Shown one piece after another: positions 7,401 to 32,780 of a stretch of DNA of 64,000 nucleotides. The stretch comes from Portibacter sp. (GTDB taxonomy: Bacteria; Bacteroidota; Bacteroidia; Chitinophagales; Saprospiraceae), in assembly GCA_040391315.1 (NCBI GenBank), contig JBEBYC010000011.1, forward strand, positions 46,962-110,961, given 5' to 3'. Position numbers and translations under genes: made by a program. Each line of letters starts with the position of its first letter. The first letter of the stretch is position 1. The notes under the pieces were generated by a model. That model was not told the origin of the DNA. It did not search any database and saw only the letters and a program-made list of their open reading frames with translations.

Positions 7401-8308
7401 GTACTACCATTAAAATTTCGATTTGACCATAATGAAGCTACATCATGTGAAGTGCTGAAACCACCCGGGCCCCAACTTGTAAAGCTATTGAGTAAAACAC
7501 CGGAGTCCGTATTTGAAGACCATGGATCACAACTTGAACATGATGAAATCCACTGCTCATTTAATTTTAACTGTAATTCATCTGCAAAGCCACTATCATA
7601 ATTGGTTTTCACATTATTAAGCACACCCAAATTATGATTTTCAACAGCTGATACAGATCCATACTTTTGAACCATAGAATAGTCAGCAGCTAAATTTATC
7701 TCTACTTCCTTACACTCATTAGCTCTTGTACTTCCATGATCATGACGATGGTTGTCTGAGTCAGTTCTGTGCTTATCCATTTCGTGTTTATACTGATCGT
7801 AACCACATTGTAAGTTTCTACTACTCAAAACATCTTTCGTGTTATACACGATAAATTCGTTAGTGGAAGCAGACGATTGATAATGTCTAAGTGGTTCAAT
7901 AAACAACATCGTAGCACCTGTACTGATAAAACCATATATAAAATCATCATTAAAAGTAAGACTTACCTGACTATCAGAATGATTTAGTACATAACCTGAC
8001 ATTGCGAGTGCATTGGTTCCATAAGTCGTTTTAATGCCCTCTTCAGTTGCTACATTCAAAACATAGTTTTCACTAATTAAACCTGAATTTTTAAGCACTA
8101 AATCCCAAGTGTATTGCTCATTTAGGCTTAATGTCAGACTGCCATTATATCGCTTAGACTGTAACTCCTGATATACGTTTCTCACATCCAATTTAACAAT
8201 GTCGTACTTTTTAAACTTTTCATTTAAAACCACATTGTGTTGTGCAGACAATTGAATGGAAACCGTACTGATTAGGAAAAACAGTGCTACCTTTAAAAAT
8301 TTTGTCAT
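4487..8308 (-). CDS. Secreted metzincin-like zinc metalloprotease with ten PKD domains and a type-A T9SS C-terminal sorting domain
   Basis: 1,273 aa. Signal peptide MTKFLKVALFFLISTVSIQLSAQ and zinc motif AHEIGHNFDAVHS (HExxHxxxxxH, reprolysin/M12B-like). Ten PKD-like repeats carry WxFEGGxPxTS or WDFGDGS cores. The C-terminal tail is INIYPNPAKDFINVQ...MYILNLKTDNVIIPNKITIFR. Confidence 0.85.
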   Translation of the reverse strand: MTKFLKVALFFLISTVSIQLSAQHNVVLNEKFKKYDIVKLDVRNVYQELQSKRYNGSLTLSLNEQYTWDLVLKNSGLISENYVLNVATEEGIKTTYGTNALAMSGYVLNHSDSQVSLTFNDDFIYGFISTGATMLFIEPLRHYQSSASTNEFIVYNTKDVLSSRNLQCGYDQYKHEMDKHRTDSDNHRHDHGSTRANECKEVEINLAADYSMVQKYGSVSAVENHNLGVLNNVKTNYDSGFADELQLKLNEQWISSCSSCDPWSSNTDSGVLLNSFTSWGPGGFSTSHDVASLWSNRNFNGSTIGLAWVGTVCSNYKYNVLQDFSSDADLKRCLQAHEIGHNFDAVHSNTGIMQPSVSYDNFWDPLSKTQIENFYSGLNCLSTCTPNNPPVADFTYLVIEQCTPVQIQFTNTSTFATSYSWTFEGGYPATSTQKDPLILYYASGTFNVTLTASNGSLSNTKTISITVIGKEVPVPLFSYTVNGYEVLFQDESIGATNWEWDFGDGSPNSFVQNPVHTYANNGYYQVTLQVSNECGTNSTWETIEILVPPSADFDSNITNGCNPLTVNFLNQSKDAESFFWSFPGGTPSTSTDENPVVVYNDAGAYDVTLEVSNFAGTHSKTVNNFIVVDQSPIAGFSYSTSGNTITFIDNSSYGTSYSWDFGDGETSIDQNPIHIYKDNGVYTVIQSVTNGCSTKTQTSTITIAIAPIPSFTSDYSGPICVEETVQFTSTSTYGPTSFVWEFEGGIPSTSTDENPIVQYNNSGSFKVTLSVTNDYGTNQIEFNNYIVVEPKPVVAFTERADGLKVDFTQNIIGATNHSWDFGDGSTSTDTNPSHTYAGEGTYTVMLSAENDCGVTEFTKIINVVLLPTADFDAVDNVVCPGETVQFENLSSPSATSWTWEFEGGIPATSNEENPTVVYSASGEFNVSLTVTNASGQATVTKTAFISVLAPVTASFVGEAINNQIELTNTDINSSSSSWEIFNDEFSTTETGEYVVVTVPSNGIYNVILTNSNKCGTAVSDTISINITGYPEASFTANGGGILCENQEVNFVANGGNSFVWEFEGGTPATSEEQIVNVTYNATGTYLVVLIATNSYGTDTLRSFVTINTKPHADFEYNINAENVKFLLTGSGQAYQNWEFGDGFSSTELSPEHTYTSSGQYTVTLVTGNGCGSDTITKNLAITVGVSDLHAVYGINIYPNPAKDFINVQIEKQLSSECTLQLVSTTGQSILEQTMFIGEKQNVSLDITDVPNGMYILNLKTDNVIIPNKITIFR
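4760..7146 (-). repeat. Tandem array of ten PKD-domain coding repeats organised as five A-B di-domain units
   Basis: Alternating subtypes. A has a WxFEGG(I/T/Y)P(A/S)TS core (WTFEGGYPATS, WSFPGGTPSTS, WEFEGGIPSTS, WEFEGGIPATS, WEFEGGTPATS). B has a W(D/E)FGDG core (WDFGDGSP, WDFGDGET, WDFGDGST, one degenerate copy, WEFGDGFS). DNA-level echoes are visible, for example CCTTCAAATTCCCAAACAAA near 5114 and 6079. Confidence 0.8.
7269..7301 (-). other. Zinc-binding catalytic motif HEIGHNFDAVH of the metalloprotease
   Basis: The reverse complement of 7269-7301 encodes H-E-I-G-H-N-F-D-A-V-H. It follows the metzincin HExxHxxGxxH pattern, but Asp replaces the usually invariant Gly. Confidence 0.8.
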
Positions 8309-11957: not shown

Positions 11958-14900
11958 CTATTTAATATAGATAAACTTTAAGGTAGCGTTTAGCTTTTGG
12001 TTATGAATATTGATAAAATAAATGCCAGGTGAAACGCCTTCGGGTAAATCAATTGGATATTCCATTGACCATTCAGTACAATGTATATTTCCAGAATGAC
12101 TCAAACGCCCATCTACATTGATGATTTCAAAATTTAGGATTTCACCAGTCAAATTATGCATAGCTAAAACCAATTGGTTTGAAACCGGATTATTAAGGAT
12201 TTTAATTTCCCCTTTATGAGGTGCCTCATCAATTTGTGTTAATACGACTGAACGCATTTTACTATTTTCATACAACTCAGAACGGAAATTAGCATCAAGT
12301 ATAAATCCAGAGGAAGCTTGATATGCATCAGCATGTAATTCAAACAACACATCACCTTTATTTATTGTAACAGGCGCTGCTTGATACATCATGATTTTCG
12401 CTCCATTTTCATGGACAATTTCGTCATGTTCAAAGTATAGATTTCGATTCCAATCAATTTTTGAAATTATTCCATGGTCTTGAAAATTCAATCCCAACTG
12501 TAATGCATCTAAATCTATATCTTCTGAAGCTTTAAAAATCCATTTAACACCTAAATTCGTTATTTCTTTTTCATATTGTATCACAAATGGATTAAGCGGA
12601 TTAGTTCTAGTAGCAATTTGTCCATTTCTAAAATCATCTCCCGATACTGAATAATTAACATCACCTATTTTCACGGCTACAAAATCCGCGTCAGTAATAT
12701 CATTTAATAACGATTCAGTTTTATATTCTGTATCAAAATAAAGCGGTGAATCGGGATTCTTAATACCATTTTTTGGAATCATCACCCATGAAGGTCTATT
12801 ATTGGGAAATTTATCAGTAGCCCCTAAAATCAATTTGCGAATACGAGTAAGATCAGATGCCGTAATGCTTTTAGAATCATCAATATCTGCAGCTATCATT
12901 TGATAAGGACTGGTAAATTTTTCCAATCCTAAAATATGCCTTTGAATAAAAACGATATCCATAGTCGATACTCCATCCAACGGATCTCCATCACGATATC
13001 CATCAATGCTATATGCTTTACCACGTTCTAAATTATCAAATCCGTAATTACCAACTTTGTCTACTATCACCGAACCATCTTTTTCGCTAGTTTTGTAGCG
13101 TACTTCAACACCTTTTACAACTTTATTATCTTCTGTAATAATTTTACCACCTACAAAATGCCTTGTAACAACATCCTGACATACATCGGCATTATCCTGT
13201 AGGATTAATTCCGTCGTACAATAATCCGAAAATCCATTTTGATCCGTCACAGACATTCTTAAATATACAGTATCGGCAATTCCATTTTTGAGATCATTAC
13301 AGTCAAATAGAAGCTTACTACTTTTTTTAACCGGGTCCCATTTTTGCGCTTCGCCTGATAAAAATTCATCTTCAACAGTTTCAACTCCTTCACCTTTGAA
13401 GTAATGCACTTGATTTATTTTGGATATTACAGGATTTGCACGGTCAAAAGTAAATATCAAAGCATTATAATCCGTACAATTATCATAACTGCCATTATCA
13501 AAATCTTTAGCATAAATTTCTATAGCACCGGTTACAGCATCTAGTGATTTTGTCAATGAACTGATACAATAAGGAGTTGGCTTTTTACAATCTTGAACTT
13601 TAAAAATTCTTGTACACACTGTGACATTACCACATTGATCCGATACATTCCATTTAATAGCGTGTATGCCTATTGGCACTTGACCTTCAAAACGATCTGA
13701 GTTGCCCATAAGATCAATCGATCCGTCATGATTAAGATCAACAGTGAATGACCAGATTAAATCCGATTTAGCTGTACATTCGTCATCTGCATCAGCTGTA
13801 AGAACAATTGTAGTCAAACCACAATCCTGAACATACGAACAAAAAACTGTATCCTGACATGAGGTCAGAATAACCGGGCTTTCATAATTACTTAATTTAA
13901 TCGTTTGAATATATTCATAAATACCAGCTTTGGGATTTTTTTCATCAAATTGACACCAATCCATTACTGACCAAGTTCTGAATATCTTTACGCATGCACT
14001 ATCACCTAAATAAAAATTCTGGTCCGTATATGTTGCAGCGACATTGCCACAAGCCGTATTGACGAAAGTAGGTTTTCCTGTAATATCCGGATTTGCATCC
14101 AATATTTTACAACCTTCGCCAGAATAACTAGCAGGCCAATCTATGTCATTAGCTGTAAATGGATTCGGATTTAAAATCGTAATAATCTGTCGACAGGAAT
14201 CTTTATTATTATTGCCATCAATTGCTATAAAAGTACGGTAAATATATCCGGTATGACAATGTAAATCCACCTCATAATGCGACTCAACTATCACGGTACA
14301 ATTATCCTGAGCAAGTCCATCCTTACCAACGAAACCATTATGATAAAAATTATTTATCACGATATCTTTTCTCAATAATGGATTCGTAACCACTGTACCA
14401 AAAGGCGACAAATCCGTCGGATCGAAGTTATCAGAACATTCGAGTGTGATATCAGGAGGACAGATGATCGTAGGTTTTATTTTATCCTCGACATTTACTT
14501 CTACCATACAGGTATTTTTATTTCCAGATTTATCAGTAATTTCAAAAACGACCATTTGAGTAGTTCCGATATCTTCACAGCAAAAATCAATAAAATCTCC
14601 CCATTCAGTGGATTTACCACAGGCAGCGTTCATCCTTCTGACTTTGAAATAATCGATTTCACAATTGTCAGAACTGCCATTATCAAATGAGTATGCAAAT
14701 ACTCGACCTCTACCGGTATTGTCCAATGCGACCTTAGTATGTGCACGACAAACAGGATAAGGAAGCGTTTTATCTTCAACAATTACAGTACTTGAACATT
14801 GGCTGCTATTGCCGCATTCATCCGTAGCAATGTACAATAGAGAATATTTACCTAAAGGCAATTCTTTAAAAAAGAAATTGCCTTGGATATTTATGATTTT

Positions 14901-16301
14901 ATCACTATAATTTAATCCATTTTTATCTTGTAACTGAAAGCTAAGTCCTATATTATTGCAATCAGTAACTTGAATTAAATCAGGTATTAAAATCTGGCCG
15001 GTATTACAAGTATACGGATTTGTTTCCAAACGAATTGTATCGCGACATACTAATTCAGGACCTTTCGTATCTTTAATGTAAATCAGTTGATTATTCGTTC
15101 TACTTTCCGAAGAGCACCAGTCAATGACAAACCAATTTCTAGCTATTTTAAAAGTATTTCCACATTCCTGAAATACGATATCACTATATTGATATTGTAA
15201 GTGTCCACAGTACCCTACTCCCGGAATTCCTGAAGTATCTGGTGATGGATAGCCATTGGCCAAAGTAGGAAACGTATCACCACACTCAAAAAATGGACGT
15301 TCTTTACCATCAAAATTAGCCGGAAAAGTTACCACATTCAGAGGCATACGTTTTACTATAATGGTTTGAATACAATTCGATGTATTGCCACGTTCATCTT
15401 TAGCTTTCCAATTTCGAGTTATGATTTTATCTGCAAGCCCCGTACATTCACCTTTCGTTTCTTTATCCGTAAATTCAAGCGTCACATCAGAGCATTTATC
15501 CCAATCTTTAACAATGTATTTTTGATTTACAACAGTATCCACCCATGCCCCTTTAGGAAACGGAAATCCCACACTATCTGGCAATATAGATGCGTCACAA
15601 AATATAGTATCATTTTTGCAAGCAAATATAGGCGGAAGATAATCTTCTACTAAAAAAGAACCATAACAAAAGTTTGAAGTACATTTATGGCCTAATTTAA
15701 ATGAAATTTCTTTACCTATATGTTTGTTTGTCAATGTATTATCTGGAATAAGTTTGCCATCATTCGTATAAAGTTCAATTGTATAATTAGTAAATGGTGG
15801 CATTGGATTAGACTGAATCATCGTAGCATCCACTTTTTGAGTACAAGATTCATTGAGTGCTATGGTAAAATTACTAGCGCAAAATAAAGGTGGTGCTGTC
15901 TGAAAAGTTACTTTTATTTCATCACTACCCCTTTCTTGTGGCTTTCCAACTGGAACATCAGAAAGTAACATTAAACGATAAAAGCCAAGTGCTATATCAT
16001 TGGATCCAGGAACATATTCAATTTGTTGAGTTTGGGCAGTACTATAGCGAACTGTCTGTAAATTTCCGGGCTGAAAACGACCATCACCAAAAGATATCCA
16101 GTCACCGTCGCTCACGTCACCATTAATTGTAGCTTGCAAATCTTGGATTAATAAGCTACTTCCCAAGCAATCTGTCCTGTCATTTCCAGCAAAAACATAA
16201 ATAGCAGACGGACTCGCTACCATAGTTTGCTCTAGCTGCCTTGCCCAAATGAAGCAGGCCACACTCACAAGCATTAAAAATGGAAAAATAACGTGTCTCA
16301 A
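11958..16301 (-). CDS. Giant T9SS cargo paralogue 1 (1,447 aa): short unique head, Cys-rich HYR-like chassis, dockerin-like and cohesin-like modules, T9SS CTD
   Basis: Uninterrupted 4.3-kb ORF with a TTG start at 16301 and an alternative ATG at 16274. Chassis landmarks include CYGSFLVEDYLPP, ITRNWKAKDERGNTSNCIQTIIV, IARNWFVIDWC, YIATDECGNSSQCSSTVIVEDK, IDFCCEDIG, CVKIFRTWSVMDWC, CKKPTPYC...YAKDFDNGSYDNC and VTDQNGFSDYCTTELILQDN. The tail has DGVSTMDIVFIQRHILG...AADIDDSKSITASDLTRIRKLILG and ends ...ILNNPVSNQLVLAM...GIYFINIHNQKLNATLKFIYIK. Confidence 0.85.
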   Translation of the reverse strand: MRHVIFPFLMLVSVACFIWARQLEQTMVASPSAIYVFAGNDRTDCLGSSLLIQDLQATINGDVSDGDWISFGDGRFQPGNLQTVRYSTAQTQQIEYVPGSNDIALGFYRLMLLSDVPVGKPQERGSDEIKVTFQTAPPLFCASNFTIALNESCTQKVDATMIQSNPMPPFTNYTIELYTNDGKLIPDNTLTNKHIGKEISFKLGHKCTSNFCYGSFLVEDYLPPIFACKNDTIFCDASILPDSVGFPFPKGAWVDTVVNQKYIVKDWDKCSDVTLEFTDKETKGECTGLADKIITRNWKAKDERGNTSNCIQTIIVKRMPLNVVTFPANFDGKERPFFECGDTFPTLANGYPSPDTSGIPGVGYCGHLQYQYSDIVFQECGNTFKIARNWFVIDWCSSESRTNNQLIYIKDTKGPELVCRDTIRLETNPYTCNTGQILIPDLIQVTDCNNIGLSFQLQDKNGLNYSDKIINIQGNFFFKELPLGKYSLLYIATDECGNSSQCSSTVIVEDKTLPYPVCRAHTKVALDNTGRGRVFAYSFDNGSSDNCEIDYFKVRRMNAACGKSTEWGDFIDFCCEDIGTTQMVVFEITDKSGNKNTCMVEVNVEDKIKPTIICPPDITLECSDNFDPTDLSPFGTVVTNPLLRKDIVINNFYHNGFVGKDGLAQDNCTVIVESHYEVDLHCHTGYIYRTFIAIDGNNNKDSCRQIITILNPNPFTANDIDWPASYSGEGCKILDANPDITGKPTFVNTACGNVAATYTDQNFYLGDSACVKIFRTWSVMDWCQFDEKNPKAGIYEYIQTIKLSNYESPVILTSCQDTVFCSYVQDCGLTTIVLTADADDECTAKSDLIWSFTVDLNHDGSIDLMGNSDRFEGQVPIGIHAIKWNVSDQCGNVTVCTRIFKVQDCKKPTPYCISSLTKSLDAVTGAIEIYAKDFDNGSYDNCTDYNALIFTFDRANPVISKINQVHYFKGEGVETVEDEFLSGEAQKWDPVKKSSKLLFDCNDLKNGIADTVYLRMSVTDQNGFSDYCTTELILQDNADVCQDVVTRHFVGGKIITEDNKVVKGVEVRYKTSEKDGSVIVDKVGNYGFDNLERGKAYSIDGYRDGDPLDGVSTMDIVFIQRHILGLEKFTSPYQMIAADIDDSKSITASDLTRIRKLILGATDKFPNNRPSWVMIPKNGIKNPDSPLYFDTEYKTESLLNDITDADFVAVKIGDVNYSVSGDDFRNGQIATRTNPLNPFVIQYEKEITNLGVKWIFKASEDIDLDALQLGLNFQDHGIISKIDWNRNLYFEHDEIVHENGAKIMMYQAAPVTINKGDVLFELHADAYQASSGFILDANFRSELYENSKMRSVVLTQIDEAPHKGEIKILNNPVSNQLVLAMHNLTGEILNFEIINVDGRLSHSGNIHCTEWSMEYPIDLPEGVSPGIYFINIHNQKLNATLKFIYIK
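11961..13181 (-). other. Conserved C-terminal tail cassette of paralogue 1 (CarboxypepD-reg-like, dockerin-like at about 12819-12977, cohesin-like, T9SS CTD)
   Basis: The last 407 aa starting at CQDVVTRHFVGGKIITEDNKVVKGVEV. It is collinear with the tails of the other three paralogues. Confidence 0.7.
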
Positions 16302-23110: not shown

Positions 23111-26100
23111 TTACTCAATTAAAATCAACTTCTTCGTTGCAGAGAAGCTATCTGTATCAATCTGATAGTAATAGATACCTGCTCCATTCAACTGATTATG
23201 ATCAATTTGGATCGTATTATAACCTTTAGTGAAAATGTTTTGAACACTATATACCATTTTTCCGGTTACATCCATAATCTTAAGGGTACCAGAACTAGCA
23301 TTAGCTAATTCAAAAGAAATCGAAGTATAATCCTTGAATGGGTTTGGTTGGTTTTGGTACAAATAATTTTGTACTGTACCCACTTCGCCATTTCTAACTT
23401 GTATATCTAACTTTCTAACATTATAATAAAAATCATAAACTTCAGGTGCAAGTCCATCTTGCATGACACTAATCTTTTCGGTACTTCCAGTTGCTTTTGT
23501 TACAAAATCAAGACTAAACAATACGTCATTTGGATTCAATCTGATACCATTTGCAATATCAATTGAGAATGTTAAGATACCATTAGAAGCCTGATTAAAA
23601 TTCACATTGTAATCATTAACTTTTACTATGCCACTGTTCACTGTTGAATATTCCAAAGCATCCGCATCAAATTTTAGTGTAAATTGCGTACCCATGATAT
23701 CCATCCATTCACCGGCTTTGATCTCAACTTTCAATAATTTACCTGCATCAAATTGCTTTTCATCAATAACAAACAGTGCATTGCTAGTTCTTGTCTGTGA
23801 CTTATTGCTATGAAGATTTACCGTTGCCGTATTATTAACGTCTCCTACTTTTACAGCTAAAAAATTCAAATCATTTACATCTTCGTAGATAGAATCCAAA
23901 AATATCTTTTCTTGATAATCGAATGGATATAAAGGATCTTGGAAAACATAACTCTCAGGAACGAATCTCCAAGAAGTGTTGTTTTCAAATTCGTTATTGA
24001 TACCGAGAATAAGTTTTCTCAATGCCGTCAAGTCGCTTGAAGATATTGTCTTAGAATTATTGATATCCGCAGCCAAAATCTTATACGGTGAATCCAAATT
24101 CTCCAATCCTAAGATATGTCTTTGTATCTGTACGATGTCTAGTGTACTTACTCCATTTATCGCATCATCGCTCATATTTGCTGCGATCTCTTTATAATCA
24201 AATACATTTAACCCTGTAAATTTATATTTACCATCTTCTTTAGACTTGTTCATTACTTCAGTATTTGAAGTAACTAAATCCAAGTATACTTCTACACCTT
24301 CTACCGGTTCTTTTGTTTCAGTAGTAATAATACCAGAAACAGATGGAAGAAGCGTAGCGACATCAGGGCATGAATTTGTCAATGGTGAATCCTGTAAATT
24401 AAGGACGACTTCACAAAATTCATAGTTACCACTTGCATCAAAAACATACATTCTTAACGGTATTTTAGCTGCCTGACCATTTGGAATATCTGCACATGTA
24501 AAACGTTTACCGCTATCTTTTCCTGCCTGATCAAATGCAAAAGTTAAGTCACCGGTTGAACAATTTGCATAACTCTTCAAGTCAAAATCACTAGCCCAAA
24601 CCTCTGTAGATCCACTAGGATCCATAACCCAAACAATCTCTTTGTAGCATATCGGTGTTGGTTTTTTAGAACCTGTAATTGTCACATCATATGAACATTT
24701 AGTAGGTACTCCACAAAAATTGACAGCTGTAAATGTAACACGGTGCGTGCCCACAGGGAAGACTCTTGTGAAAGTTTTACCAATTCCGGACATATCCGAA
24801 TCACCATCTTTATCTAAATCAACCGTCCAGCTAAATTTCAAATCATTCGGTTTAGTACAATCGTCCTCAGCCTCAGCTGTCAAAGTTAATTCAATATCAC
24901 ATTTATCAGAATCGGTTTCAAAAGTTTGATTTCTACAATTTTTAAAAACCGCACCACCAGAACCTGTAAGTTTAATCAGCTGTGTTCTTTCAGCTATCAC
25001 TTCATTTTGATTGTATGAACACCAATCAATTACACTCCATTTTCTCAATATTTTGATACAAACATTATCTACATTATAGAAGAGTTGATCAGTATATGAA
25101 ATTCCTAGATCACGACAACCAACGTTGACTACAACAGGACGACTATTTAATGCTTCTGGTGTTGCATCATTCAAATTACAAGAAGCTATTGTTCTTTCAC
25201 CAGGGAAAGTTACATTACTTTCAGAAAATACCGGAGAGATAATTGTTAATCGTTGGGTACATTTTACTGTTGGGTCAGCGACTAAATACCATTCCCTAGT
25301 TACAACACCGGTTTTACATTTATTATCTAATGTATTACTTATAATTCTACTTGCAAAAACATCAGAACCGCAGATACCACTGATTGTCGGCTTACCAAAG
25401 AATAAGGTATCAAAAGCTGCTGTTCCACTAACCCATGCATTAATTTTGCTATCACTACAAGTTAGCGTTTTATTTGAAGGGCAAGTTATCACCGGTGGTC
25501 TCTTATTCTGAACTTTAACTTGAGTTTCACAATCATTATAATTACCAGCAGTGTCATAAACTCTTAATATAACAGAAACATATGAATCCGGTTTAGTTAT
25601 ATCTTCACAACAGAAAGTAACTTTAGGTCCAAAGTTTAAATCAGACGCATTTCCTGCACAAGTTGTTGTCTTACGTCTCACTTCATATTTAACAATTGGC
25701 CCACAGTTATCAATACTATGATCATCTAAAGAAGTAGCATATAATTCAGCATAACCAGATTCGTCAATAGAAATCACCGTGTGACCTTCACATATTGCAG
25801 TTGGAGGAATTAAATCCACTACATCTACTTCCGTAAAACATTCTGTAGTATTTCCACATTCGTCAGTTACAGTATATCTTAACCAAGTACGGCCCACTGG
25901 AAGTCCAACAATTGTAAATGGCCTAGCTGTTTGAGAAATAGTAGCTGCATACGCAGGACTTGTTCCTTGTATTCGTGTTTCACCTTCCACTTTAACCCAT
26001 ATTCCATCTACTGGAGGATTACCATTTTTATCAGCCTTTTTGAATGCAATATCCCAAGTGACACCAGAACATTCAGAAATAACAGTCGGTGGTTTAACAG

Positions 26101-27562
26101 CCCATGTTGCAGTACAGCTATTTGCTAATACAGGAACAACATCAACTGGGCCATTTGGATTACCCGTTAAATCAGCCGGACATGTAATGATTGGTGCAAT
26201 ATTGTCTTCGATCTTAATTGTTTGATCACAAATCTTATCCTCACCAGTACACCAGTCAATAATCGTCCACTTTCTTAGTACTTTAACACCCGCACCACAT
26301 AAATCAAATACGACATCCTCATAATAAAGTTGGATATTGTTACAATTTATATTCTGAGGGAAACCGCTTACTTCAGGTACAGGTGCACCATTAGGAAGTT
26401 TAGTAAATGAGGTATTACAGTCTCTTATCCAGTTTGCAGGACAAACGATATCTGCTAGAGATGGTCTTTTAAAGTATATGTACTGAACTGTTTCCACTGT
26501 ATTACCACTTAAATCCTTTGCCGTCCATGTTCTTTGAATAATTCTACTAAATCTATCACTACATGAAAGATTCGTAACCTCATCTTTTTTAGTTAACGTA
26601 ACTGCTGAACATGCATCTTCAAATATTGGAAGATTTGAAGCATTAGCAACCGTTTCGTTTAGAATTCGGGTTTCGTCATTACAGTTTAACGAACAGATCG
26701 TTGCGTCAACTGAAGATTTAATGTTTCCAACACGGCTATCTAATAATAAACTATAATTAATACCCCCAGGAGGTACTGTTCCTACTACTGTACTAATTAC
26801 TAAAACATAGTTAATTCCTGTATTTATAGACCCTGAATATGTATTCACATCCGTTGAAACCAAATTATCACATGGACTAGATGGATCAAAAACACCCGCA
26901 TAAAGAGACATTCTCAAATTAGCATTTAATAAGTTAATGTCTACGGTTCCTGTTTGATCAACTGCAAACACATGTGTTTCATAATATACATCATCAGACG
27001 AAACACCAGGACAATCTACAACAGATAATGGTCTGTTATATCTCGCATCAATATCGCTAACGTTACCTGAAAATTCTGTAATTCGAGCTTCACATGGAGT
27101 ACTTAAAACAACAGGTGGTAATTTGTCTTCTATATTAGCGTAACCCCAACATCTGTTTCCACAACCACGTAGAGATACGGTAACTTCAAGTTTTTTATTT
27201 ATATGTTCTAAAGTTGCTACAACACGCTTAATAGGTCTACCCATTAAATCATTACCGATAATTTCAATTGGAAGTTCTACACCATTAACTAATTTTGCTG
27301 TAACATCATAAGCATCCTCGCTATAAGCCAGAGCTTCCATCACCATATCTGGATGAATCGTTACAGAACAATTGTCCTCGAGCGATATCTGTACGCCATT
27401 GCTACATGAAAGGATTACATTACAATCTACCTGAGCAGAAAGAGAAAATGAACTAATAAGAGTTAAGGTTATTAAAATTGAGAATGCCCTTGTTTTTGCG
27501 CCTAAAAAGTCTAAACCACTAATCAGACTTTTATTGAAATGTGTAAAATTGGGTCTTTTCAT
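23111..27562 (-). CDS. Giant T9SS cargo paralogue 2 (about 1,483 aa)
   Basis: The start is set at the ATG at 27562 (MKRPNFTHFNKSLISGLDFLGAKTRAFSILITLTLISSFSLSAQ is a signal peptide). The track's 35-codon N-terminal extension runs through a GC-rich hairpin. Chassis landmarks are CWGYANIEDKLPP, IIQRTWTAKDLSGNTVETVQYIYF, VLRKWTIIDWC, YTVTDECGNTTECFTEVDVVD, VTFCCEDI, CIKILRKWSVIDWC, KKPTPIC...WASDFDLKSYANC and VFDASGNYEFCEVVLNLQD. The tail has a dockerin-like module (about 24002-24166), a cohesin-like module (about 23381-23785) and a CTD (LYQNQPNPFKDYTSISFEL...ATKKLILIE). Confidence 0.85.
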   Translation of the reverse strand: MKRPNFTHFNKSLISGLDFLGAKTRAFSILITLTLISSFSLSAQVDCNVILSCSNGVQISLEDNCSVTIHPDMVMEALAYSEDAYDVTAKLVNGVELPIEIIGNDLMGRPIKRVVATLEHINKKLEVTVSLRGCGNRCWGYANIEDKLPPVVLSTPCEARITEFSGNVSDIDARYNRPLSVVDCPGVSSDDVYYETHVFAVDQTGTVDINLLNANLRMSLYAGVFDPSSPCDNLVSTDVNTYSGSINTGINYVLVISTVVGTVPPGGINYSLLLDSRVGNIKSSVDATICSLNCNDETRILNETVANASNLPIFEDACSAVTLTKKDEVTNLSCSDRFSRIIQRTWTAKDLSGNTVETVQYIYFKRPSLADIVCPANWIRDCNTSFTKLPNGAPVPEVSGFPQNINCNNIQLYYEDVVFDLCGAGVKVLRKWTIIDWCTGEDKICDQTIKIEDNIAPIITCPADLTGNPNGPVDVVPVLANSCTATWAVKPPTVISECSGVTWDIAFKKADKNGNPPVDGIWVKVEGETRIQGTSPAYAATISQTARPFTIVGLPVGRTWLRYTVTDECGNTTECFTEVDVVDLIPPTAICEGHTVISIDESGYAELYATSLDDHSIDNCGPIVKYEVRRKTTTCAGNASDLNFGPKVTFCCEDITKPDSYVSVILRVYDTAGNYNDCETQVKVQNKRPPVITCPSNKTLTCSDSKINAWVSGTAAFDTLFFGKPTISGICGSDVFASRIISNTLDNKCKTGVVTREWYLVADPTVKCTQRLTIISPVFSESNVTFPGERTIASCNLNDATPEALNSRPVVVNVGCRDLGISYTDQLFYNVDNVCIKILRKWSVIDWCSYNQNEVIAERTQLIKLTGSGGAVFKNCRNQTFETDSDKCDIELTLTAEAEDDCTKPNDLKFSWTVDLDKDGDSDMSGIGKTFTRVFPVGTHRVTFTAVNFCGVPTKCSYDVTITGSKKPTPICYKEIVWVMDPSGSTEVWASDFDLKSYANCSTGDLTFAFDQAGKDSGKRFTCADIPNGQAAKIPLRMYVFDASGNYEFCEVVLNLQDSPLTNSCPDVATLLPSVSGIITTETKEPVEGVEVYLDLVTSNTEVMNKSKEDGKYKFTGLNVFDYKEIAANMSDDAINGVSTLDIVQIQRHILGLENLDSPYKILAADINNSKTISSSDLTALRKLILGINNEFENNTSWRFVPESYVFQDPLYPFDYQEKIFLDSIYEDVNDLNFLAVKVGDVNNTATVNLHSNKSQTRTSNALFVIDEKQFDAGKLLKVEIKAGEWMDIMGTQFTLKFDADALEYSTVNSGIVKVNDYNVNFNQASNGILTFSIDIANGIRLNPNDVLFSLDFVTKATGSTEKISVMQDGLAPEVYDFYYNVRKLDIQVRNGEVGTVQNYLYQNQPNPFKDYTSISFELANASSGTLKIMDVTGKMVYSVQNIFTKGYNTIQIDHNQLNGAGIYYYQIDTDSFSATKKLILIE
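23114..24370 (-). other. Conserved C-terminal tail cassette of paralogue 2
   Basis: The last 419 aa from CPDVATLLPSVSGIITTETKEPVEGVEV. Dockerin-like: INGVSTLDIVQIQRHILGLENLDSPYKILAADINNSKTISSSDLTALRKLILG. Cohesin-like: LFVIDEKQFDAGKLLKVEIKAGEWMDIMGTQFTLKFDADALEY...NDVLFSLDFVTKATG. A T9SS CTD follows. Confidence 0.7.
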
Positions 27563-27617
27563 TGTATGAAAATTTAATTTTGTAAAAAAATTATGTGTTT
27601 TTATATGAGAAAATTGT

Positions 27618-27658
27618 GGCACGAAGTCAGAGGCTTCGTCTTTTTCTGACTTCGTGCC
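27618..27658 (-). terminator. GC-rich perfect 14-bp hairpin between the two tandem giant genes (intercistronic terminator, attenuator or RNA-stability element)
   Basis: GGCACGAAGTCAGA (27618-27631) and TCTGACTTCGTGCC (27645-27658) flank a 13-nt loop. On the minus strand the stem is followed by ACAAUUUUCUC. It lies 9 nt after the stop of paralogue 3 and 56 nt before the ATG of paralogue 2. Confidence 0.5.
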
Positions 27659-27666
27659 GGCATTCA

Positions 27667-30600
27667 TTATTTTATTATTATCATTTTACGGGTTGCTGAG
27701 TATTTGTTGGTTTCAATGACGTAGTAAAGCACTCCGGTACTGCTTACTGTTCCAGCATCAAAATTGATTGTATTATATCCTTTTTTGAAAGGATTTTGCT
27801 GTTGTAACAATACTTTACCAGTAACATCATAAACTTTAAAGGTTACGTCACTTGCCTCAGGAAGATTAAATCCTATGACAGTTAATGCATTGAAAGGGTT
27901 TGGTATATTTTGGAAAACTTCAAACAAATCAGTATTTTGGTTACCATCCTGTGATCTTGAATTCAATTTGATTTTGTTAACTACAAATTCATTACCTTCT
28001 AATGTGTACAATTCCGGTTGAATTCCCTGAGAAGCGAATTTTAATATTTCATGAGCACCTACTGCTTCATTCAATTTAAATCTCAATTTCATCAGTTCAC
28101 CTGACATCATGATTGGCTCAAAATTATTCCAACTAAAGTGTAAGATACCATCGCTAATATTTCTATAACCAAAGTTTTCATCACTAATATGCATGCCTAT
28201 AGCGTTTACATCCATTAGTTCTGCTATATTCGGATCAAAAGCTAATGAAAATTGAGTTCCGGCTATTTCGGTTGCATTTGGTAATGCTAAATAAACATCT
28301 ACGAAATCACCTGCGTTACCATTGACTAGATTTTGGTGGAGCATTATCGTTCCTCTAGTTGAAGCCTGTGTGTTATCCAGTGTATTTGCCTGAACAGTAC
28401 CGTTCACATCACCTATTTTCACAGCGATAAAGTCTTTACCACCAATATTCTGACTCAAATTATCAATATCAAGAATTTCGTTATAAGGGAATGGATCTTT
28501 AGGATCATAGAATTTGTAGCTTGCATCCACAAATCTCCAGCTCTTATTATTGGTAAACACATCTTTAACCCCTAGTATTACTTTTCTCAAATCAGTCAAA
28601 TCTGATGCCGTAATATTATATGAATTATTGATATCTGCTGCAATAATTTTATATGGTGAACTTAATGTTTCAAGTCCTAATATGTGCCTTTGAATAATTA
28701 CAATATCTAAGGTAGAAACACCATTTAGCGCATCATCATCTTTCGTCGGATTGATAGAATATGTATTGTCAGTTAAAAGATTGCTAAACAAGAAGCCACC
28801 TTCTTTATTCGTTTTTTCTGACTTTGGAAACTCAGGTTGTAAACTCATTAAATCAACCTGTACATTTTCAACCGGTTGAGATGCTTCAGTGTAAATATTA
28901 CCTTTAACTGAGGCTCTAGTTTGAGGTTTTGCACACATCCCATCATTATCTTGTACAAATAATGATACCGTACAGAATTCACTATTTCCTGCTTCGTCAA
29001 TAAAATATACATCAAAAGTAAATTGCTTGATGGTATCACCATCCATATCTGCACAAGTAATTGTACGAGATTTATCATTTCGGTTGGTTGGTGAAAATGA
29101 TGCAACGATTTTATCTGGAGAAGTACAGTTGTCTGTACTACCTCTGTTAAAGTCTGATGCCCAGATAGATACTTCTTTAGCCGTCGGCATGATAACGGTT
29201 CCTAACTCAGTAATACAATACGGGCTAGGTTTTTTATCATCTGATATCGTAAATATATTAGAACATCTCGTCTCATTCTTACAACCATCTTTGACAACCC
29301 AAGTAATTTTATGCGTACCATATGGGAAAACTCTGTTAATTTTTCTACCTACACCATTTGAAACTTCAACTGTTCCATCATTATTTTCATCGATAATATA
29401 TGACCATTCTAGTCGATCTTCAGGTGTACAATCATCTTCAGCTACTGCAGAAACAGTAACATTAGCCTGACATTGTCCTACTTGTGTATAGCTTATATCA
29501 GCAGGACTACAACCACTTAATATTTTCGGACCAACAGTATTATTCACCATGATAAGTTGTGTGTACGTCCATTCACCGATACCCGGTGCAAAAGGATTGT
29601 GTTGACACCAGTCAATGACAGTCCATTTTCTCAGTACTTTTACACATACATTATCTGCAAAGTTAAATACGATATCTTCATAATTTGCTAGAAGTTTAGA
29701 ACAATCCGTATTACGTAAATATCTTGGTTTACTAAATTGTGCTGGTAATTTATCCGGGTCTATATCGGCAATACATCCACTTGAAATCGTATATGTATCC
29801 GGCCAGTCAATGTCATTACCAGAGAATGGTTTATTATTTCTTACTGTAATTGTCTGTGATTTTACTGTTTTATTTCCAAATCCATCCGTAGCAGTAAACG
29901 TTCTTACGATGGATCCTAAACCACATTCATTGATATTATCGGTTCTCGATTCAACAATAGATACTGTACAGTTATCTGAAGCCACAGCTGTTCCGAATCT
30001 AGTCAAAGATGTGAAATCTTCACTACAATTTGCTGTTACATCCGCCGGAACATTTAAAACCGGGAAGATATTGTCCTGAACTCTTGCTTCTACCATACAT
30101 GAATTAAACAATCCTGCCTCATCCCAAACGCCTAATTCAACCTGTATAACTTTACCGATATCACTACAAGTAAATTTAATTTGATTATTACATGGTAAAG
30201 AATTCCAAGAAACAAGATTATCCATTCTTCTAACTTTCATACATGCTAGTCCACAGTTATCATGGCTTCCATCATCAAAAGTTAATACACCAGCTAATCC
30301 TTCTCCATTAGCACCAATGGCTATAATGGTATGTTTGTCACAAACAGCTACAGGTGCTTCATTGTCTACAACATCAATTTCTGTAAAGCAATATGAATAA
30401 TTACCACAAAGGTCTGTAACTGTATATCTAATCCAGGTTCTTCCTTTTGGTAAGTTGGTAATTATATAATTTGGATAGTTACCTTTAACTTCAGTCGCAC
30501 CATCCTTTGTAGTAAAGTCTGATTCTACCGGGTTACCTTTGCTGTCAGCAAGTTTAAACTCCACAGACCATGTTGTAGGCATACAATCATATATGGATAC

Positions 30601-32703
30601 AGGCGGTAACACATTCCAGTCGCCTACACACTTATTATAATTTGTGTGAACGATTGCTGCCGGTTGTATCGTTCCACCTGACTGCGTTGTAAGGTCAGCA
30701 GGACAAGTCACAATAGGGGCTTTGGTATCCATTACTGTAATCAACTGATTCAATTCCAAAATATTATTTGCAGGATCCGCACAATAATCAATAATGACCC
30801 ACTTTCTTACAAGTTTATATGCATTTGGATTAGTTCCACAAAGTAATATTTTCTTATCTGTATAAGATACAGAAGCATTCATACACAATGTACCAAATGG
30901 ATATCCTGTAAAAGCAGGATCTGGGACTGAATCCACCTTTGTAATTCCATTTTCAATATAAGTCTGTTTGCTACCATTAACAAAATAAGCAACTTTAGGA
31001 AAATTATCACACGCTTCGAGTGAAGCATATGGTCCCGTCGCATCATCCCAGTTAAAAGGCATGATTACATCAGCTAACGATGCTCTTTCTACACTTATGG
31101 TATGTGCACATGAAGATTCATTACCAGTATCATCTTTAATTTTCCATGTTCTTGTAATCACAGATGAATAAGGACCAGAACATTCATTATTAACGACTAC
31201 ATCTGTATAAGTCAAAATGACATTACTACATTTATCATAACCACTTACAATCCATGTATTAGATTTTCCTACAACCGGAGTATAAACTGCTTCGTCTGGA
31301 AGAACCGGGAAACCAGTAACAGATAAGTTATTTAACTGATCACAGGTTATAATTGCATCATCTGGGCAAATCATGTCTTGAATAGATTTATCTTCAATAT
31401 TCGCATAACTCCAACAAGAATTACCAGAACATTCATGAATTATTTTAACTTCTAAAACCTTACCTACATAATGAAACCCTAAAGTACCATTAGGAATGAT
31501 CGTATCCGCTTCAACATCTCTTAGCATTATATCATAAGATGTATTAGGAAATTGTTGATCTAACAAAAACTGATCTGGAGAGAATAACAACTCACAGTTA
31601 GGATTCATAGATACATTCACTAAATCTTTACATGACATTGCTCTCAAAGGTTCGTTTACAATATCAACCCTTTGGATTGTTGTAAATGAACAATAGTCAG
31701 CAGAAGGACTTATTCTAAATTCACCACTAACGCCGATATAATATACACCCACATGATTAGGCCATTGTATCGTTCGCGATTTTAATGACCCACTAGGGTT
31801 AGTGATTACCACATCTTGTGCTATATTGGTTGCAGTTGAATCCGTATATACTCCCCATGTTAGAGAAGTCGGATTTATCTGATTGTTATTTGCTGCAAGT
31901 GAATATACTTCAATAGCACCAATACAATTACCAAAATCACCTATTAACCTTGTATAAGGAGTCGGGTCAATAACAGAAACCTGATAACTTGTGGTAAAAT
32001 CACATCCTTGAGGTTGACCAGCATAAATGATTTGATTTCCCGAAACGTTTAACCTATAAGTACCTGGAGTTGGTCCCCAGTCAACAACAACATTATTGTT
32101 ATTATTAGGTCCTGAGATAGTTCCACCATTTACAAGAGACCAAACAACATTAATATAATTGCTGTTGGGTTGAATAGGGTTAAGAAAATAATTTTCACCA
32201 ATAGCATTTTGACATACTAAAGGATCACCAATAATACTCGTAGCTATTGGATGTGTTGGGTACTTACAATTCTGAATAGAATGCACCTCAACGCGTTCAC
32301 CCGTATTTTTATTCCGGATAAATACACTCCATGGCTGTCCGGATACCCTTTTGCCTTCTATTTCAAAAACACCCGCTGAAATTTCTGGAATTGGTGTATC
32401 TTTTAAGTATAAAATTGGTGCTGCTGGCGGTGGTAAAGAAGCCGGATGATAAAAACCCGAAATCGGATCATCCAGTAACCATACCTGACCAGATACGCTG
32501 TTAAATGTAAAACGGTCAAGATACTGACCATTAGTATCTGTAGTAGCATTATTGAGACAAAGACACTCTGTTTTATTAACAGCAACAGCCTGTCCATGCA
32601 CAATATTTGCAAACATAACTAATGTCATTAAAATGACGTTTAGTGTTCTTAATCCCAATCGACTGATTCGGATAAAATTGTGTTTAAGTAATGGGTTCTT
32701 CAT
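27667..32703 (-). CDS. Giant T9SS cargo paralogue 3 (about 1,678 aa)
   Basis: The start is set at ATG 32703 (MKNPLLKHNFIRISRLGLRTLNVILMTLVMFANIVHGQ). The head of about 350 aa has PKD-like modules (IGDPLVCQNAIGENYFLNP...VVWSLVNGGTISGP...VVVDWGPTPGTYRLNV). Chassis landmarks are CWSYANIEDK, VITRTWKIKDDTGNESSCAHTISV, LVRKWVIIDYC, YTVTDLCGNYSYCFTEIDVVD, IKFTCSDIG, CVKVLRKWTVIDWC, KKPSPYC...WASDFNRGSTDNC and FIDEAGNSEFCTVSLFVQDN. The tail has a dockerin-like module (about 28570-28734), a cohesin-like module and a CTD (FQNIPNPFNALTVIGFNL...ATRKMIIIK). Confidence 0.85.
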   Translation of the reverse strand: MKNPLLKHNFIRISRLGLRTLNVILMTLVMFANIVHGQAVAVNKTECLCLNNATTDTNGQYLDRFTFNSVSGQVWLLDDPISGFYHPASLPPPAAPILYLKDTPIPEISAGVFEIEGKRVSGQPWSVFIRNKNTGERVEVHSIQNCKYPTHPIATSIIGDPLVCQNAIGENYFLNPIQPNSNYINVVWSLVNGGTISGPNNNNNVVVDWGPTPGTYRLNVSGNQIIYAGQPQGCDFTTSYQVSVIDPTPYTRLIGDFGNCIGAIEVYSLAANNNQINPTSLTWGVYTDSTATNIAQDVVITNPSGSLKSRTIQWPNHVGVYYIGVSGEFRISPSADYCSFTTIQRVDIVNEPLRAMSCKDLVNVSMNPNCELLFSPDQFLLDQQFPNTSYDIMLRDVEADTIIPNGTLGFHYVGKVLEVKIIHECSGNSCWSYANIEDKSIQDMICPDDAIITCDQLNNLSVTGFPVLPDEAVYTPVVGKSNTWIVSGYDKCSNVILTYTDVVVNNECSGPYSSVITRTWKIKDDTGNESSCAHTISVERASLADVIMPFNWDDATGPYASLEACDNFPKVAYFVNGSKQTYIENGITKVDSVPDPAFTGYPFGTLCMNASVSYTDKKILLCGTNPNAYKLVRKWVIIDYCADPANNILELNQLITVMDTKAPIVTCPADLTTQSGGTIQPAAIVHTNYNKCVGDWNVLPPVSIYDCMPTTWSVEFKLADSKGNPVESDFTTKDGATEVKGNYPNYIITNLPKGRTWIRYTVTDLCGNYSYCFTEIDVVDNEAPVAVCDKHTIIAIGANGEGLAGVLTFDDGSHDNCGLACMKVRRMDNLVSWNSLPCNNQIKFTCSDIGKVIQVELGVWDEAGLFNSCMVEARVQDNIFPVLNVPADVTANCSEDFTSLTRFGTAVASDNCTVSIVESRTDNINECGLGSIVRTFTATDGFGNKTVKSQTITVRNNKPFSGNDIDWPDTYTISSGCIADIDPDKLPAQFSKPRYLRNTDCSKLLANYEDIVFNFADNVCVKVLRKWTVIDWCQHNPFAPGIGEWTYTQLIMVNNTVGPKILSGCSPADISYTQVGQCQANVTVSAVAEDDCTPEDRLEWSYIIDENNDGTVEVSNGVGRKINRVFPYGTHKITWVVKDGCKNETRCSNIFTISDDKKPSPYCITELGTVIMPTAKEVSIWASDFNRGSTDNCTSPDKIVASFSPTNRNDKSRTITCADMDGDTIKQFTFDVYFIDEAGNSEFCTVSLFVQDNDGMCAKPQTRASVKGNIYTEASQPVENVQVDLMSLQPEFPKSEKTNKEGGFLFSNLLTDNTYSINPTKDDDALNGVSTLDIVIIQRHILGLETLSSPYKIIAADINNSYNITASDLTDLRKVILGVKDVFTNNKSWRFVDASYKFYDPKDPFPYNEILDIDNLSQNIGGKDFIAVKIGDVNGTVQANTLDNTQASTRGTIMLHQNLVNGNAGDFVDVYLALPNATEIAGTQFSLAFDPNIAELMDVNAIGMHISDENFGYRNISDGILHFSWNNFEPIMMSGELMKLRFKLNEAVGAHEILKFASQGIQPELYTLEGNEFVVNKIKLNSRSQDGNQNTDLFEVFQNIPNPFNALTVIGFNLPEASDVTFKVYDVTGKVLLQQQNPFKKGYNTINFDAGTVSSTGVLYYVIETNKYSATRKMIIIK
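27670..28935 (-). other. Conserved C-terminal tail cassette of paralogue 3
   Basis: The last 422 aa from CAKPQTRASVKGNIYTEASQPVENVQV. Dockerin-like: LNGVSTLDIVIIQRHILGLETLSSPYKIIAADINNSYNITASDLTDLRKVILG. Cohesin-like: FVDVYLALPNATEIAGTQFSLAFDPNIAELMDV...GELMKLRFKL. Confidence 0.7.
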
Positions 32704-32751
32704 CGGTTGATGGATTTTTGTAAAAATTCGTAATTGCATAAATCGTTCAAT

Positions 32752-32780
32752 ATTTTGTACCAATACACCACGTACAAAAT
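32752..32780. promoter_or_regulatory. 9-bp inverted repeat upstream of giant paralogue 3
   Basis: ATTTTGTAC (32752-32760) and GTACAAAAT (32772-32780) are separated by 11 nt. The repeat lies 49-77 nt upstream of the ATG at 32703. Confidence 0.3.

Follow-up and report, generated by a model that had tools for sequence, protein, structure and literature searches.

A dockerin-cohesin cassette ahead of the type A sorting domain in giant proteins of a Saprospiraceae bacterium, with a candidate role in docking between surface proteins

Four giant genes with a common C-terminal layout

The window, that is, the whole 64,000-nucleotide stretch analyzed here (Portibacter sp., Saprospiraceae; GenBank assembly GCA_040391315.1, contig JBEBYC010000011.1, positions 46,962 to 110,961 of the forward strand), contains four giant open reading frames (ORFs) on the minus strand. 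Their products end in a common series of modules, a cassette that includes a dockerin and a cohesin and is followed by a type IX secretion system (T9SS) C-terminal sorting domain (CTD). ORF 1, the focal gene, spans positions 23111 to 27667 and encodes 1518 amino acids (aa), with a signal-peptide-like N terminus, HYR-type repeats, and the tail cassette, up to the stop codon. ORF 3 (27667 to 32763; 1698 aa) lies in tandem with ORF 1, directly upstream of it, while ORF 2 occupies positions 11958 to 16301 (1447 aa) and ORF 4 positions 46219 to 57369 (3716 aa). At position 27667, the end of ORF 3 (its stop codon) and the beginning of ORF 1 (its start codon) overlap, and the ORF 3-then-ORF 1 tandem is kept as orthologous pairs at four loci of relatives (L001, L002, L004, and L026), with identities of 54 to 85%.

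On direct reading, the N termini of all four ORFs were hydrophobic and signal-peptide-like. A Pfam comparison of the four full-length proteins revealed HYR-type repeats and immunoglobulin (Ig)-like domains in the ORF bodies and no match to any glycoside hydrolase or carbohydrate-binding module. Cellulosomes carry their dockerins on carbohydrate-active enzymes, an arrangement not found here, since Pfam showed only HYR, P, and Ig-like domains. The P domain, of the proprotein-convertase type (PF01483), lies at residues 1994 to 2098 of the ORF 4 product (positions 51076 to 51390) and scored 24.4 bits against a threshold of 21; no adjoining peptidase domain was detectable in ORF 4.

The terminal ∼410 to 420 aa of the four products are colinear, and tails 2 to 4 are 31 to 41% identical to tail 1. 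Tail 1 (23114 to 24370) corresponds to the final 419 codons of ORF 1; tails 2, 3, and 4 cover positions 11961 to 13181, 27670 to 28935, and 46222 to 47448, respectively. In all of them the order is a CarboxypepD_reg-like beta-sandwich, a dockerin, a beta segment of ∼59 aa ending in the motif DFxAVKxGDVN, a cohesin, and a T9SS type A CTD. An earlier note, made from the letters alone, had described this common order, quoted its motifs, and placed the modules just ahead of the T9SS sorting domain. The colinear alignment and reading of the sequences bore out order and motifs in the four tails, and profile TIGR04183 bore out the position in all four paralogues.

The sandwich and the sorting domain

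The sandwich occupies residues 8 to 63 of tail 1 (24182 to 24349; residue numbers hereafter are those of tail 1) and positions 13002 to 13163, 28750 to 28917, and 47275 to 47439 in tails 2, 3, and 4, respectively. Pfam CarboxypepD_reg scored 14.5 to 27.1 bits, the highest value being that of tail 1, and was thus below the gathering score of 32.3 in all four tails. The match spanned only profile positions 1 to ∼50 of 82 (1 to 51 in tail 1). With the corresponding family hidden Markov model (HMM), tail 1 scored 33.6 bits; the family HMMs used throughout were built solely from homologues in the databases, and many of those behind the dockerin model already have a precomputed PF00404 (Dockerin_1) match. 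Five strands were present in the AlphaFold2 model of the tail 1 sandwich. When the dockerin was spliced out of the tails and Pfam was rerun, the sandwich score of tail 1 increased only from 27.1 to 31.4 bits, and those of the other tails barely changed. The dockerin may be an insertion within the sandwich, an idea kept alive by the coupled pair 23-172 and the compact 131-aa model described below.

The CTD was recognized by TIGR04183, the type A profile, in all four tails (42.3, 24.8, 34.3, and 38.9 bits for tails 1 to 4; cut-off, 23), with matches ending 1 to 3 residues short of the stop codon. It is located at positions 23114 to 23359 in tail 1, where PF18962 scored 42.6 bits, at 27670 to 27915 in tail 3, and at 46222 to 46467 in tail 4. 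The CTD of tail 2 (11961 to 12194) is divergent, scoring 8.2 bits against the family HMM and bearing an insertion of ∼12 aa.

The dockerin and the segment that follows it

The dockerin of tail 1 (23993 to 24184; residues 63 to 126) consists of two F-hand segments and three helices, placed at residues 76 to 87, 95 to 101, and 111 to 122 in the AlphaFold2 model. Those of tails 2, 3, and 4 lie at positions 12813 to 13001, 28561 to 28749, and 47086 to 47274. The profile comparison proposed in the earlier note, Pfam against the four tails, gave Dockerin_1 scores of 21.0, 20.2, 19.5, and 30.4 bits for tails 1 to 4 (gathering score, 22.9; E values, 4.5e-7 to 1.1e-3) and Cohesin above the gathering score in two tails. 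With the family dockerin HMM, all four tails reached 99 to 110 bits (104.5 in tail 1). When a profile of the four dockerin-to-cohesin regions was compared with the sequences of the Protein Data Bank (PDB), a solved dockerin, 4uyp_B, was matched with an E value of 8.8e-4.

A second AlphaFold2 model covered residues 60 to 190 (131 aa), comprising the dockerin and the stretch that the earlier note had taken for a linker. This piece was predicted to fold on its own, with a predicted local distance difference test score (pLDDT) of 91.1 and a predicted template-modeling score (pTM) of 0.84. Its nine best Foldseek matches in the PDB were all dockerins, with E values of only 0.09 to 0.6, the module being small. 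Thus, 4uyp_B superposed with a root mean square deviation (rmsd) of 1.8 Å over 55 columns (probability, 0.98), and 4fl4_A gave a template-modeling (TM) score of 0.73 normalized to the target. The supposed linker (23816 to 23992 in tail 1, residues 127 to 185, SWRFV ... FLAVKVGDVN; 12636 to 12812, 28384 to 28560, and 46915 to 47085 in tails 2, 3, and 4) is instead a conserved, structured segment of three strands that folds with the dockerin. The family HMM for this segment scored 51 to 88 bits across the four tails, and W134, K174, G176, and D177 were invariant in 123 sequences.

The second calcium loop had been called canonical, and it is so: each of the four tails has the 12-residue pattern D-x-[DN]-x-[DNS]-x-x-x-x-x-x-D with a helix after it, and in the 123 sequences D102 and D113 were conserved at 100%, N104 at 85%, and D/S106 at 90%. 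As to the first loop, the Pfam Dockerin_1 match begins only at profile position 10, and the earlier note had considered the loop partly lost. It is indeed a variant, position 5 being hydrophobic and position 6 being N (N72) in 96% of the sequences. However, it is not truncated: alignment to 4uyp_B gives the canonical 12-residue length, and the loop is conserved family-wide in some 120 homologues, with oxygen-bearing side chains kept as N/D at position 1 (83%), D/N at position 3 (87%), S at position 9 (95%), and D at position 12 (100%). Taken together, Pfam, the family HMM, the predicted fold, Foldseek, and the co-evolution pattern described below identify the module claimed as dockerin-like as a real homologue of cellulosomal dockerins.

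The invariant motif GDVN that follows the last strand of the segment (G176 to N179 in tail 1; 23834 to 23845) resembles the start of a dockerin calcium loop.

The cohesin

In tail 1, the cohesin jelly-roll spans residues 192 to 332 (23375 to 23797); in tails 3 and 4, it lies at positions 27937 to 28368 and 46477 to 46896. Pfam Cohesin (PF00963) scored 28.7 bits in tail 1 and 34.6 in tail 3 (gathering score, 24.1). The family cohesin HMM yielded 132 bits for tail 1, 89 for tail 3, and 125 (124.8) for tail 4, the last value being obtained with a model built only from Pfam-positive homologues. A cohesin-like sandwich had been claimed for all four tails, which holds for tails 1, 3, and 4; tail 2 has only a degenerate cohesin-like region (12222 to 12614). 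This region scored 13.3 bits with the family HMM (independent E value, 1e-5) and matched with an E value of 6e-6 and a probability of 85% in hhalign, and BLASTP aligned it to tail 4 with an E value of 1.5e-5. Beside this decayed cohesin, tail 2 retains a conserved dockerin (98.8 bits) and beta segment (50.8 bits). ORF 2 may be a paralogue in the course of losing the socket and, perhaps, normal sorting as well.

The structural comparison of the jelly-roll was made with the focal tail 1, whose AlphaFold2 model (419 aa; 123 aligned sequences) had a mean pLDDT of 94.3 and a pTM of 0.81. The best Foldseek match in the PDB was 2w1n (E value, 9e-11), followed by further cohesins (5nrk_A, 2jh2, 4dh2_C, 2vn5_C, 6kgf, and 1aoh) with TM scores of 0.60 to 0.68 normalized to the target. 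In the profile search of PDB sequences, the cohesin match was only marginal (3l8q_A; E value, 0.04), so the identity of this module rests on Pfam and fold comparison. The earlier note had named the absence of both a cohesin jelly-roll and a dockerin EF-hand pair as an outcome that would speak against it; both were found.

Jelly-rolls resemble carbohydrate-binding modules, and the proteins are adhesin-like in their HYR repeats, so one of the two modules might be thought to bind a nonprotein ligand, such as a glycan, lipopolysaccharide, or the surface of a prey or substrate. Nothing direct speaks for such binding, the best structural matches are cohesins and dockerins rather than carbohydrate-binding modules, and the modules are cell proximal, beside the sorting domain. 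We consider this explanation very improbable.

Conservation and co-evolution within the cassette

Mean column entropy was lowest for the dockerin (1.23 bits), followed by the segment (1.98), the CTD (2.02), the cohesin (2.50), and the sandwich (2.66). The dockerin is thus by far the most conserved module, and it is nearly identical across the four paralogues. Cassette cohesins, for their part, keep a polar constellation (G227, Q229, S269, E310, and Y312) at 94 to 100%.

Mean-field direct coupling analysis (DCA) was applied to 405 non-identical cassette sequences (effective number, Meff, 380). The packing of helix 1 on helix 3 of the dockerin was recovered. Strong couplings joined the segment to the dockerin (70-128, 117-128, 77-179, and 119-179), the segment to the sandwich (23-172), and the sandwich to the dockerin (18-94 and 15-115). 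The sandwich, the dockerin, and the beta segment are accordingly regarded as one compact unit, in which the dockerin is braced on both sides. N179 of the GDVN motif co-evolves with L77 (position 11 of loop 1) and K119 (position 18, in helix 3), and from these two couplings the GDVN loop is tentatively placed on the surface where helix 1 begins and helix 3 ends. Its possible role there would be to complete the variant first calcium site or to cap it. Such a cover would leave free only one of the two symmetric faces of the dockerin, and the single binding mode guessed in the earlier note would then hold for another reason.

Within the cohesin, the strands that contain residues 227-231, 266-270, and 304-312 were placed adjacent to each other by the pairs 227-269, 269-310, 227-310, and 231-307. 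The near-invariant polar residues sit on these three coupled strands, which, from what is generally known of cohesin structures, we take to be the 8-3-6 part of the dockerin-binding sheet.

Dockerin-cohesin pairs were depleted among the strongest couplings, with 14 in the top 200 compared to 31.8 expected and the best of them at rank 60. This result bears on the possibility that the cassette folds back on itself, the dockerin sitting permanently on the cohesin of its own chain and forming a rigid, calcium-stabilized base or stalk or an auto-inhibited state. The depletion, set beside the strong sandwich-dockerin-segment couplings, argues against such a permanent contact, as does ORF 2, in which the dockerin is kept while the cohesin decays. 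A few weak dockerin-cohesin couplings do exist (109-203, 115-198, and 115-202), but they fall on cohesin strand 1, which presumably lies off the dockerin-binding face of solved complexes. On the other side, the four-module tail was predicted as one rigid body, and the strict G-x-Q, S-W, and E-x-Y invariants are specific to cohesins with a dockerin on the same chain. Strict invariants of this kind fit an intra- or an intermolecular interaction alike. We regard fold-back as rather unlikely, though the most serious of the alternatives.

The modules might also serve a purely structural or secretory purpose and not bind each other at all, acting through calcium-dependent folding, as stiffeners, or as spacers through which the CTD is offered to the T9SS or its attachment machinery. 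The cassette always adjoins the CTD, the dockerin is buried between sandwich and segment, and its binding surface may be partly covered, as the couplings 77-179 and 119-179 indicate; to our knowledge, no partner has been shown for many of the dockerin and cohesin homologues outside cellulosomes. However, the surface-type polar residues of both modules are very strongly conserved, which suggests a conserved partner, as does the genetic linkage to multi-cohesin proteins described below, and most T9SS cargoes, such as the metalloprotease encoded at positions 4487 to 8308 of the window, need no cassette. A role of this kind thus seems improbable.

Distribution of the cassette and combinations of its modules

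A profile search over 1.84 billion representatives at 50% identity retrieved 11,318, 8,919, and 4,573 cassette representatives at E values of ≤1e-3, ≤1e-10, and ≤1e-30, respectively. The proteins were 1000 to 4900 aa long, with the cassette match ∼90 to 100 aa from the C terminus. All named matches belonged to Saprospiraceae, Lewinellaceae, "Aureispira," or other Saprospirales-like metagenome-assembled genomes (MAGs), the closest (84% identity) being from an uncultured Aureispira sp. MAG. The cassette is widespread in the Saprospirales. Homologues bear the machine annotations "dockerin type I domain-containing," "cohesin domain-containing," or "T9SS type A sorting domain-containing."

The canonical five-part order was found in 110 of 134 representatives, and the same fixed order and spacing of modules recurred in 110 ORFs of 79 genome loci. 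Such constancy speaks for a cassette that folds back on itself. The modules also occur apart, which argues against it: dockerin-plus-segment units without a cohesin were found in P0200, P0201, and P0152, and cohesins without a dockerin in proteins of ∼260 aa with a single cohesin and a type A CTD and in a CHU_C protein with 12 cohesins. In addition, P0140 and P0184 end in the cassette and carry N-terminal cohesin arrays. Four proteins (P0128, P0131, P0200, and P0201) combine two to four dockerin-plus-segment units in one chain with few cohesins or none, which would make them multi-plug mirror images of the multi-cohesin scaffolds.

Multi-cohesin genes next to cassette genes in relatives

In 8 of the 79 related genome loci, the gene directly downstream of a cassette gene encoded 2 to 5 tandem cohesins. 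The proteins at these eight loci (Pfam Cohesin, 53 to 132 bits) also contained SprB repeats and a CHU_C type B CTD, and their genes were followed by a PorP/SprF gene. In the reverse direction, metagenomes were queried with the multi-cohesin protein, and among the 52 loci with at least 3.5 kb of upstream DNA, 32 had a dockerin-bearing cassette gene 84 to 1565 nucleotides upstream on the same strand. Complete multi-cohesin ORFs contained 2 to 11 cohesins each; 67 of 73 ended in a CHU_C-like CTD, and 33 of 73 had PorP/SprF downstream. The multi-cohesin alignment used as a database query retrieved at least 7 proteins, which were not informative on taxonomy.

Examples of the conserved cluster are L030 (2368 to 11526), L050 (2366 to 11492), L063 (2071 to 11907), and L142 (1017 to 14696). 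It starts with a LuxR-type response regulator in some cases, followed by a protein with HYR repeats, the cassette, and a type A CTD and, in some cases, by a small protein with a single cohesin and a type A CTD. Next in line is the protein in which 2 to 11 tandem cohesins are combined with SprB repeats and a type B CTD (CHU_C), and PorP/SprF closes the cluster. By analogy, this cluster resembles a scaffoldin gene cluster wired to the T9SS. The genetic linkage of cassette genes to multi-cohesin genes argues against a dockerin permanently occupied by the cohesin of its own chain.

Docking between molecules as the favored interpretation

We favor the interpretation that the cassette mediates docking between molecules, to which we assign a rough probability of 0.5, over obligate fold-back. 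The preference is based on the adjacency of cassette genes to multi-cohesin genes, on the independent occurrence of the modules, on the decay of the cohesin in ORF 2 next to a kept dockerin, and on the depletion of dockerin-cohesin couplings. According to this proposal, which is drawn from sequence comparison and structure prediction, Sec and the T9SS would export the HYR-repeat, adhesin-like giant proteins of this Saprospiraceae bacterium, each with two functional units ahead of the type A sorting domain, the braced dockerin unit and a divergent but constrained cohesin. After export, the cassette would lie at the cell-proximal end as a plug and a socket. The dockerin would bind cohesins of other surface proteins, namely the cassette cohesins of sister fibers and, where one is encoded, those arrayed in tandem on a "scaffold" that has SprB repeats and a type B CTD and is anchored by PorP/SprF. 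A further docking site would be provided by the cohesin of the cassette itself. The result would be a cellulosome-like assembly principle on a diderm surface, with adhesin-like fibers and no enzymes as cargo.

Several observations weigh against docking between molecules. The pTM of 0.81 for the 419-aa tail implies a fixed dockerin-cohesin arrangement, so that the pair is possibly satisfied within the chain. The strict polar invariants belong to the cohesins that share a chain with a dockerin and are looser in the multi-cohesin proteins. The depletion of dockerin-cohesin couplings is itself compatible with an intramolecular interface, because DCA is blind to interfaces whose residues are invariant and cannot co-vary. 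Dockerin-only cargo, typical of cellulosomes, is rare in this family. As for the modules themselves, only the dockerin of tail 4 exceeds the Pfam cut-off, the other three falling just under it, and Pfam Cohesin did not list tails 2 and 4. Finally, genes for multi-cohesin, CHU_C, or PorP/SprF proteins were absent from the window and from the 10 kb past each end, and so the scaffold partner is hypothetical for the genome from which the window comes. These 10-kb flanks, reached via identical contigs, contain housekeeping genes only. The ORF 3-ORF 1 pair is not orthologous to the scaffold-adjoining cassette genes, to which it is ∼36 to 37% identical in the body.

With docking between molecules as the starting point, a wider and more tentative proposal can be made from the same comparisons. 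The Saprospirales might possess a T9SS-based, cellulosome-like surface assembly for giant adhesins, in which SprB-repeat multi-cohesin proteins, anchored via a type B CTD and PorP/SprF, would act as scaffolds and type A proteins would plug into them as cargoes by their braced dockerins. The cohesin on each cargo would allow the fibers to be daisy-chained or bundled where they lie nearest the cell, and the window proteins would be such cargoes.

Other genes of the window

The genes around the giant ORFs are housekeeping genes and one further T9SS cargo. The latter, on the minus strand at positions 4487 to 8308, encodes a metalloprotease of the reprolysin-like M12B type that also has nine PKD domains and a type A CTD. 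It contains neither a dockerin nor a cohesin, and the cassette is therefore not general to the T9SS substrates of this organism.

Directly upstream of ORF 4, a minus-strand gene at 57412 to 58365 encodes a predicted membrane protein of 317 aa with no family match. It is adjoined by a divergent gene on the plus strand (59145 to 60359) for a GerE/LuxR-type regulator of 404 aa. ORF 4, the membrane-protein gene, and the regulator gene stay together in the independent assemblies L159 to L161, and LuxR-type regulators precede the cassette genes in L030, L050, and L063 as well.

Comparison with known systems and significance

The cassette shares both of its folds with the type I pairs and scaffoldins of clostridial cellulosomes (PDB entries 1ohz, 2vn5, 4uyp, 5nrk, and 4dh2). 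Cellulosomal type I dockerins likewise have a duplicated F-hand and a canonical second calcium loop, adaptor scaffoldins also join cohesins and a dockerin on one protein, and cellulosomal gene clusters similarly pair a cell-anchored multi-cohesin protein with dockerin-bearing partners. In contrast, the organisms here are diderm Bacteroidota, export and anchoring would proceed through the T9SS (type A and type B CTDs and PorP/SprF) and not through SLH domains or sortase, and the cargo consists of HYR-repeat, adhesin-like proteins, each having one dockerin and one cohesin as a fixed cassette. Further differences are the variant first calcium loop and the bracing of the dockerin by beta elements on both sides. 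This bracing is reminiscent of the X-module-dockerin dyads of types II and III (PDB entries 3kcp and 4fl4), in which an Ig-like beta module packs on the dockerin and stabilizes it. The likeness is one of analogy, since no match to the X module turned up in sequence or fold and part of the bracing in the cassette follows the dockerin.

Outside cellulosomes, cohesin and dockerin homologues mediate, or are proposed to mediate, protein-protein docking, and a non-cellulosomal pair of Archaeoglobus fulgidus has been used for surface display (PMC9705933). Cohesins of Clostridium perfringens glycoside hydrolases (2w1n and 2jh2) were among the Foldseek matches of tail 1. The modules of these two organisms differ from those described here in phylum, secretion route, protein context, and module subtype. 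Among other bacteria of the FCB group, further likenesses come from "Ca. Stygibacter" (Cloacimonadota), for which a protein resembling a scaffoldin, having cohesins in tandem and a CTD, has been inferred (PMC8542988), and from the Chlorochromatium epibiont (Chlorobiota), whose Cag_2037 and Cag_2038 are giant Ig-repeat surface proteins with a predicted cohesin-dockerin joint (bioRxiv 10.64898/2026.03.19.712371). The former shares tandem cohesins, a T9SS-type CTD, and dockerin-bearing partners with the scaffolds described above. In both systems, however, dockerin and cohesin reside on separate proteins, and the Cloacimonadota case involves enzymes. Neither study has a cassette fixed on all cargo or a scaffold that combines a type B CTD, SprB repeats, and PorP/SprF.

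The SprB/GhpA filaments of Flavobacterium and Aureispira are giant repeat proteins exported by the T9SS, like the window proteins, and GhpA has Ig repeats, multimerizes extracellularly, and is anchored via PorP/PorE homologues (bioRxiv 10.1101/2024.01.29.577165). The multi-cohesin scaffolds match this kind of anchoring in their SprB repeats, type B CTD, and PorP/SprF neighbor. An identity of the window proteins with the GhpA system was considered and rejected, because the GhpA paper makes no mention of cohesin or dockerin and describes type B-like anchoring, whereas the window proteins have type A CTDs. In the literature searched, no paper described together the fixed cassette, its abundance in the Saprospirales, and the synteny of its genes with those for PorP/SprF and for multi-cohesin proteins bearing a type B CTD. 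This suggests that, although non-cellulosomal cohesin-dockerin pairs are already known, the Saprospirales cassette system is apparently undescribed.

The retention and organization of T9SS cargo at the cell surface are understood only in part. By the known routes, cargo with type A CTDs is attached to anionic lipopolysaccharide (A-LPS), and cargo with type B CTDs is fixed by PorP-type anchors. If docking between molecules holds true, noncovalent plug-and-socket docking by cohesin and dockerin would be a third route of retention, and the assembly principle of the cellulosome would reach diderm bacteria and nonenzymatic cargo. The large family, the small modules, and the high-confidence predictions make the cassettes a possible source of orthogonal cohesin-dockerin pairs for protein engineering. 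For the Saprospirales themselves, a lineage abundant in marine habitats and activated sludge, docking of this kind would explain how dozens of giant adhesin-like proteins are arranged at the cell surface.

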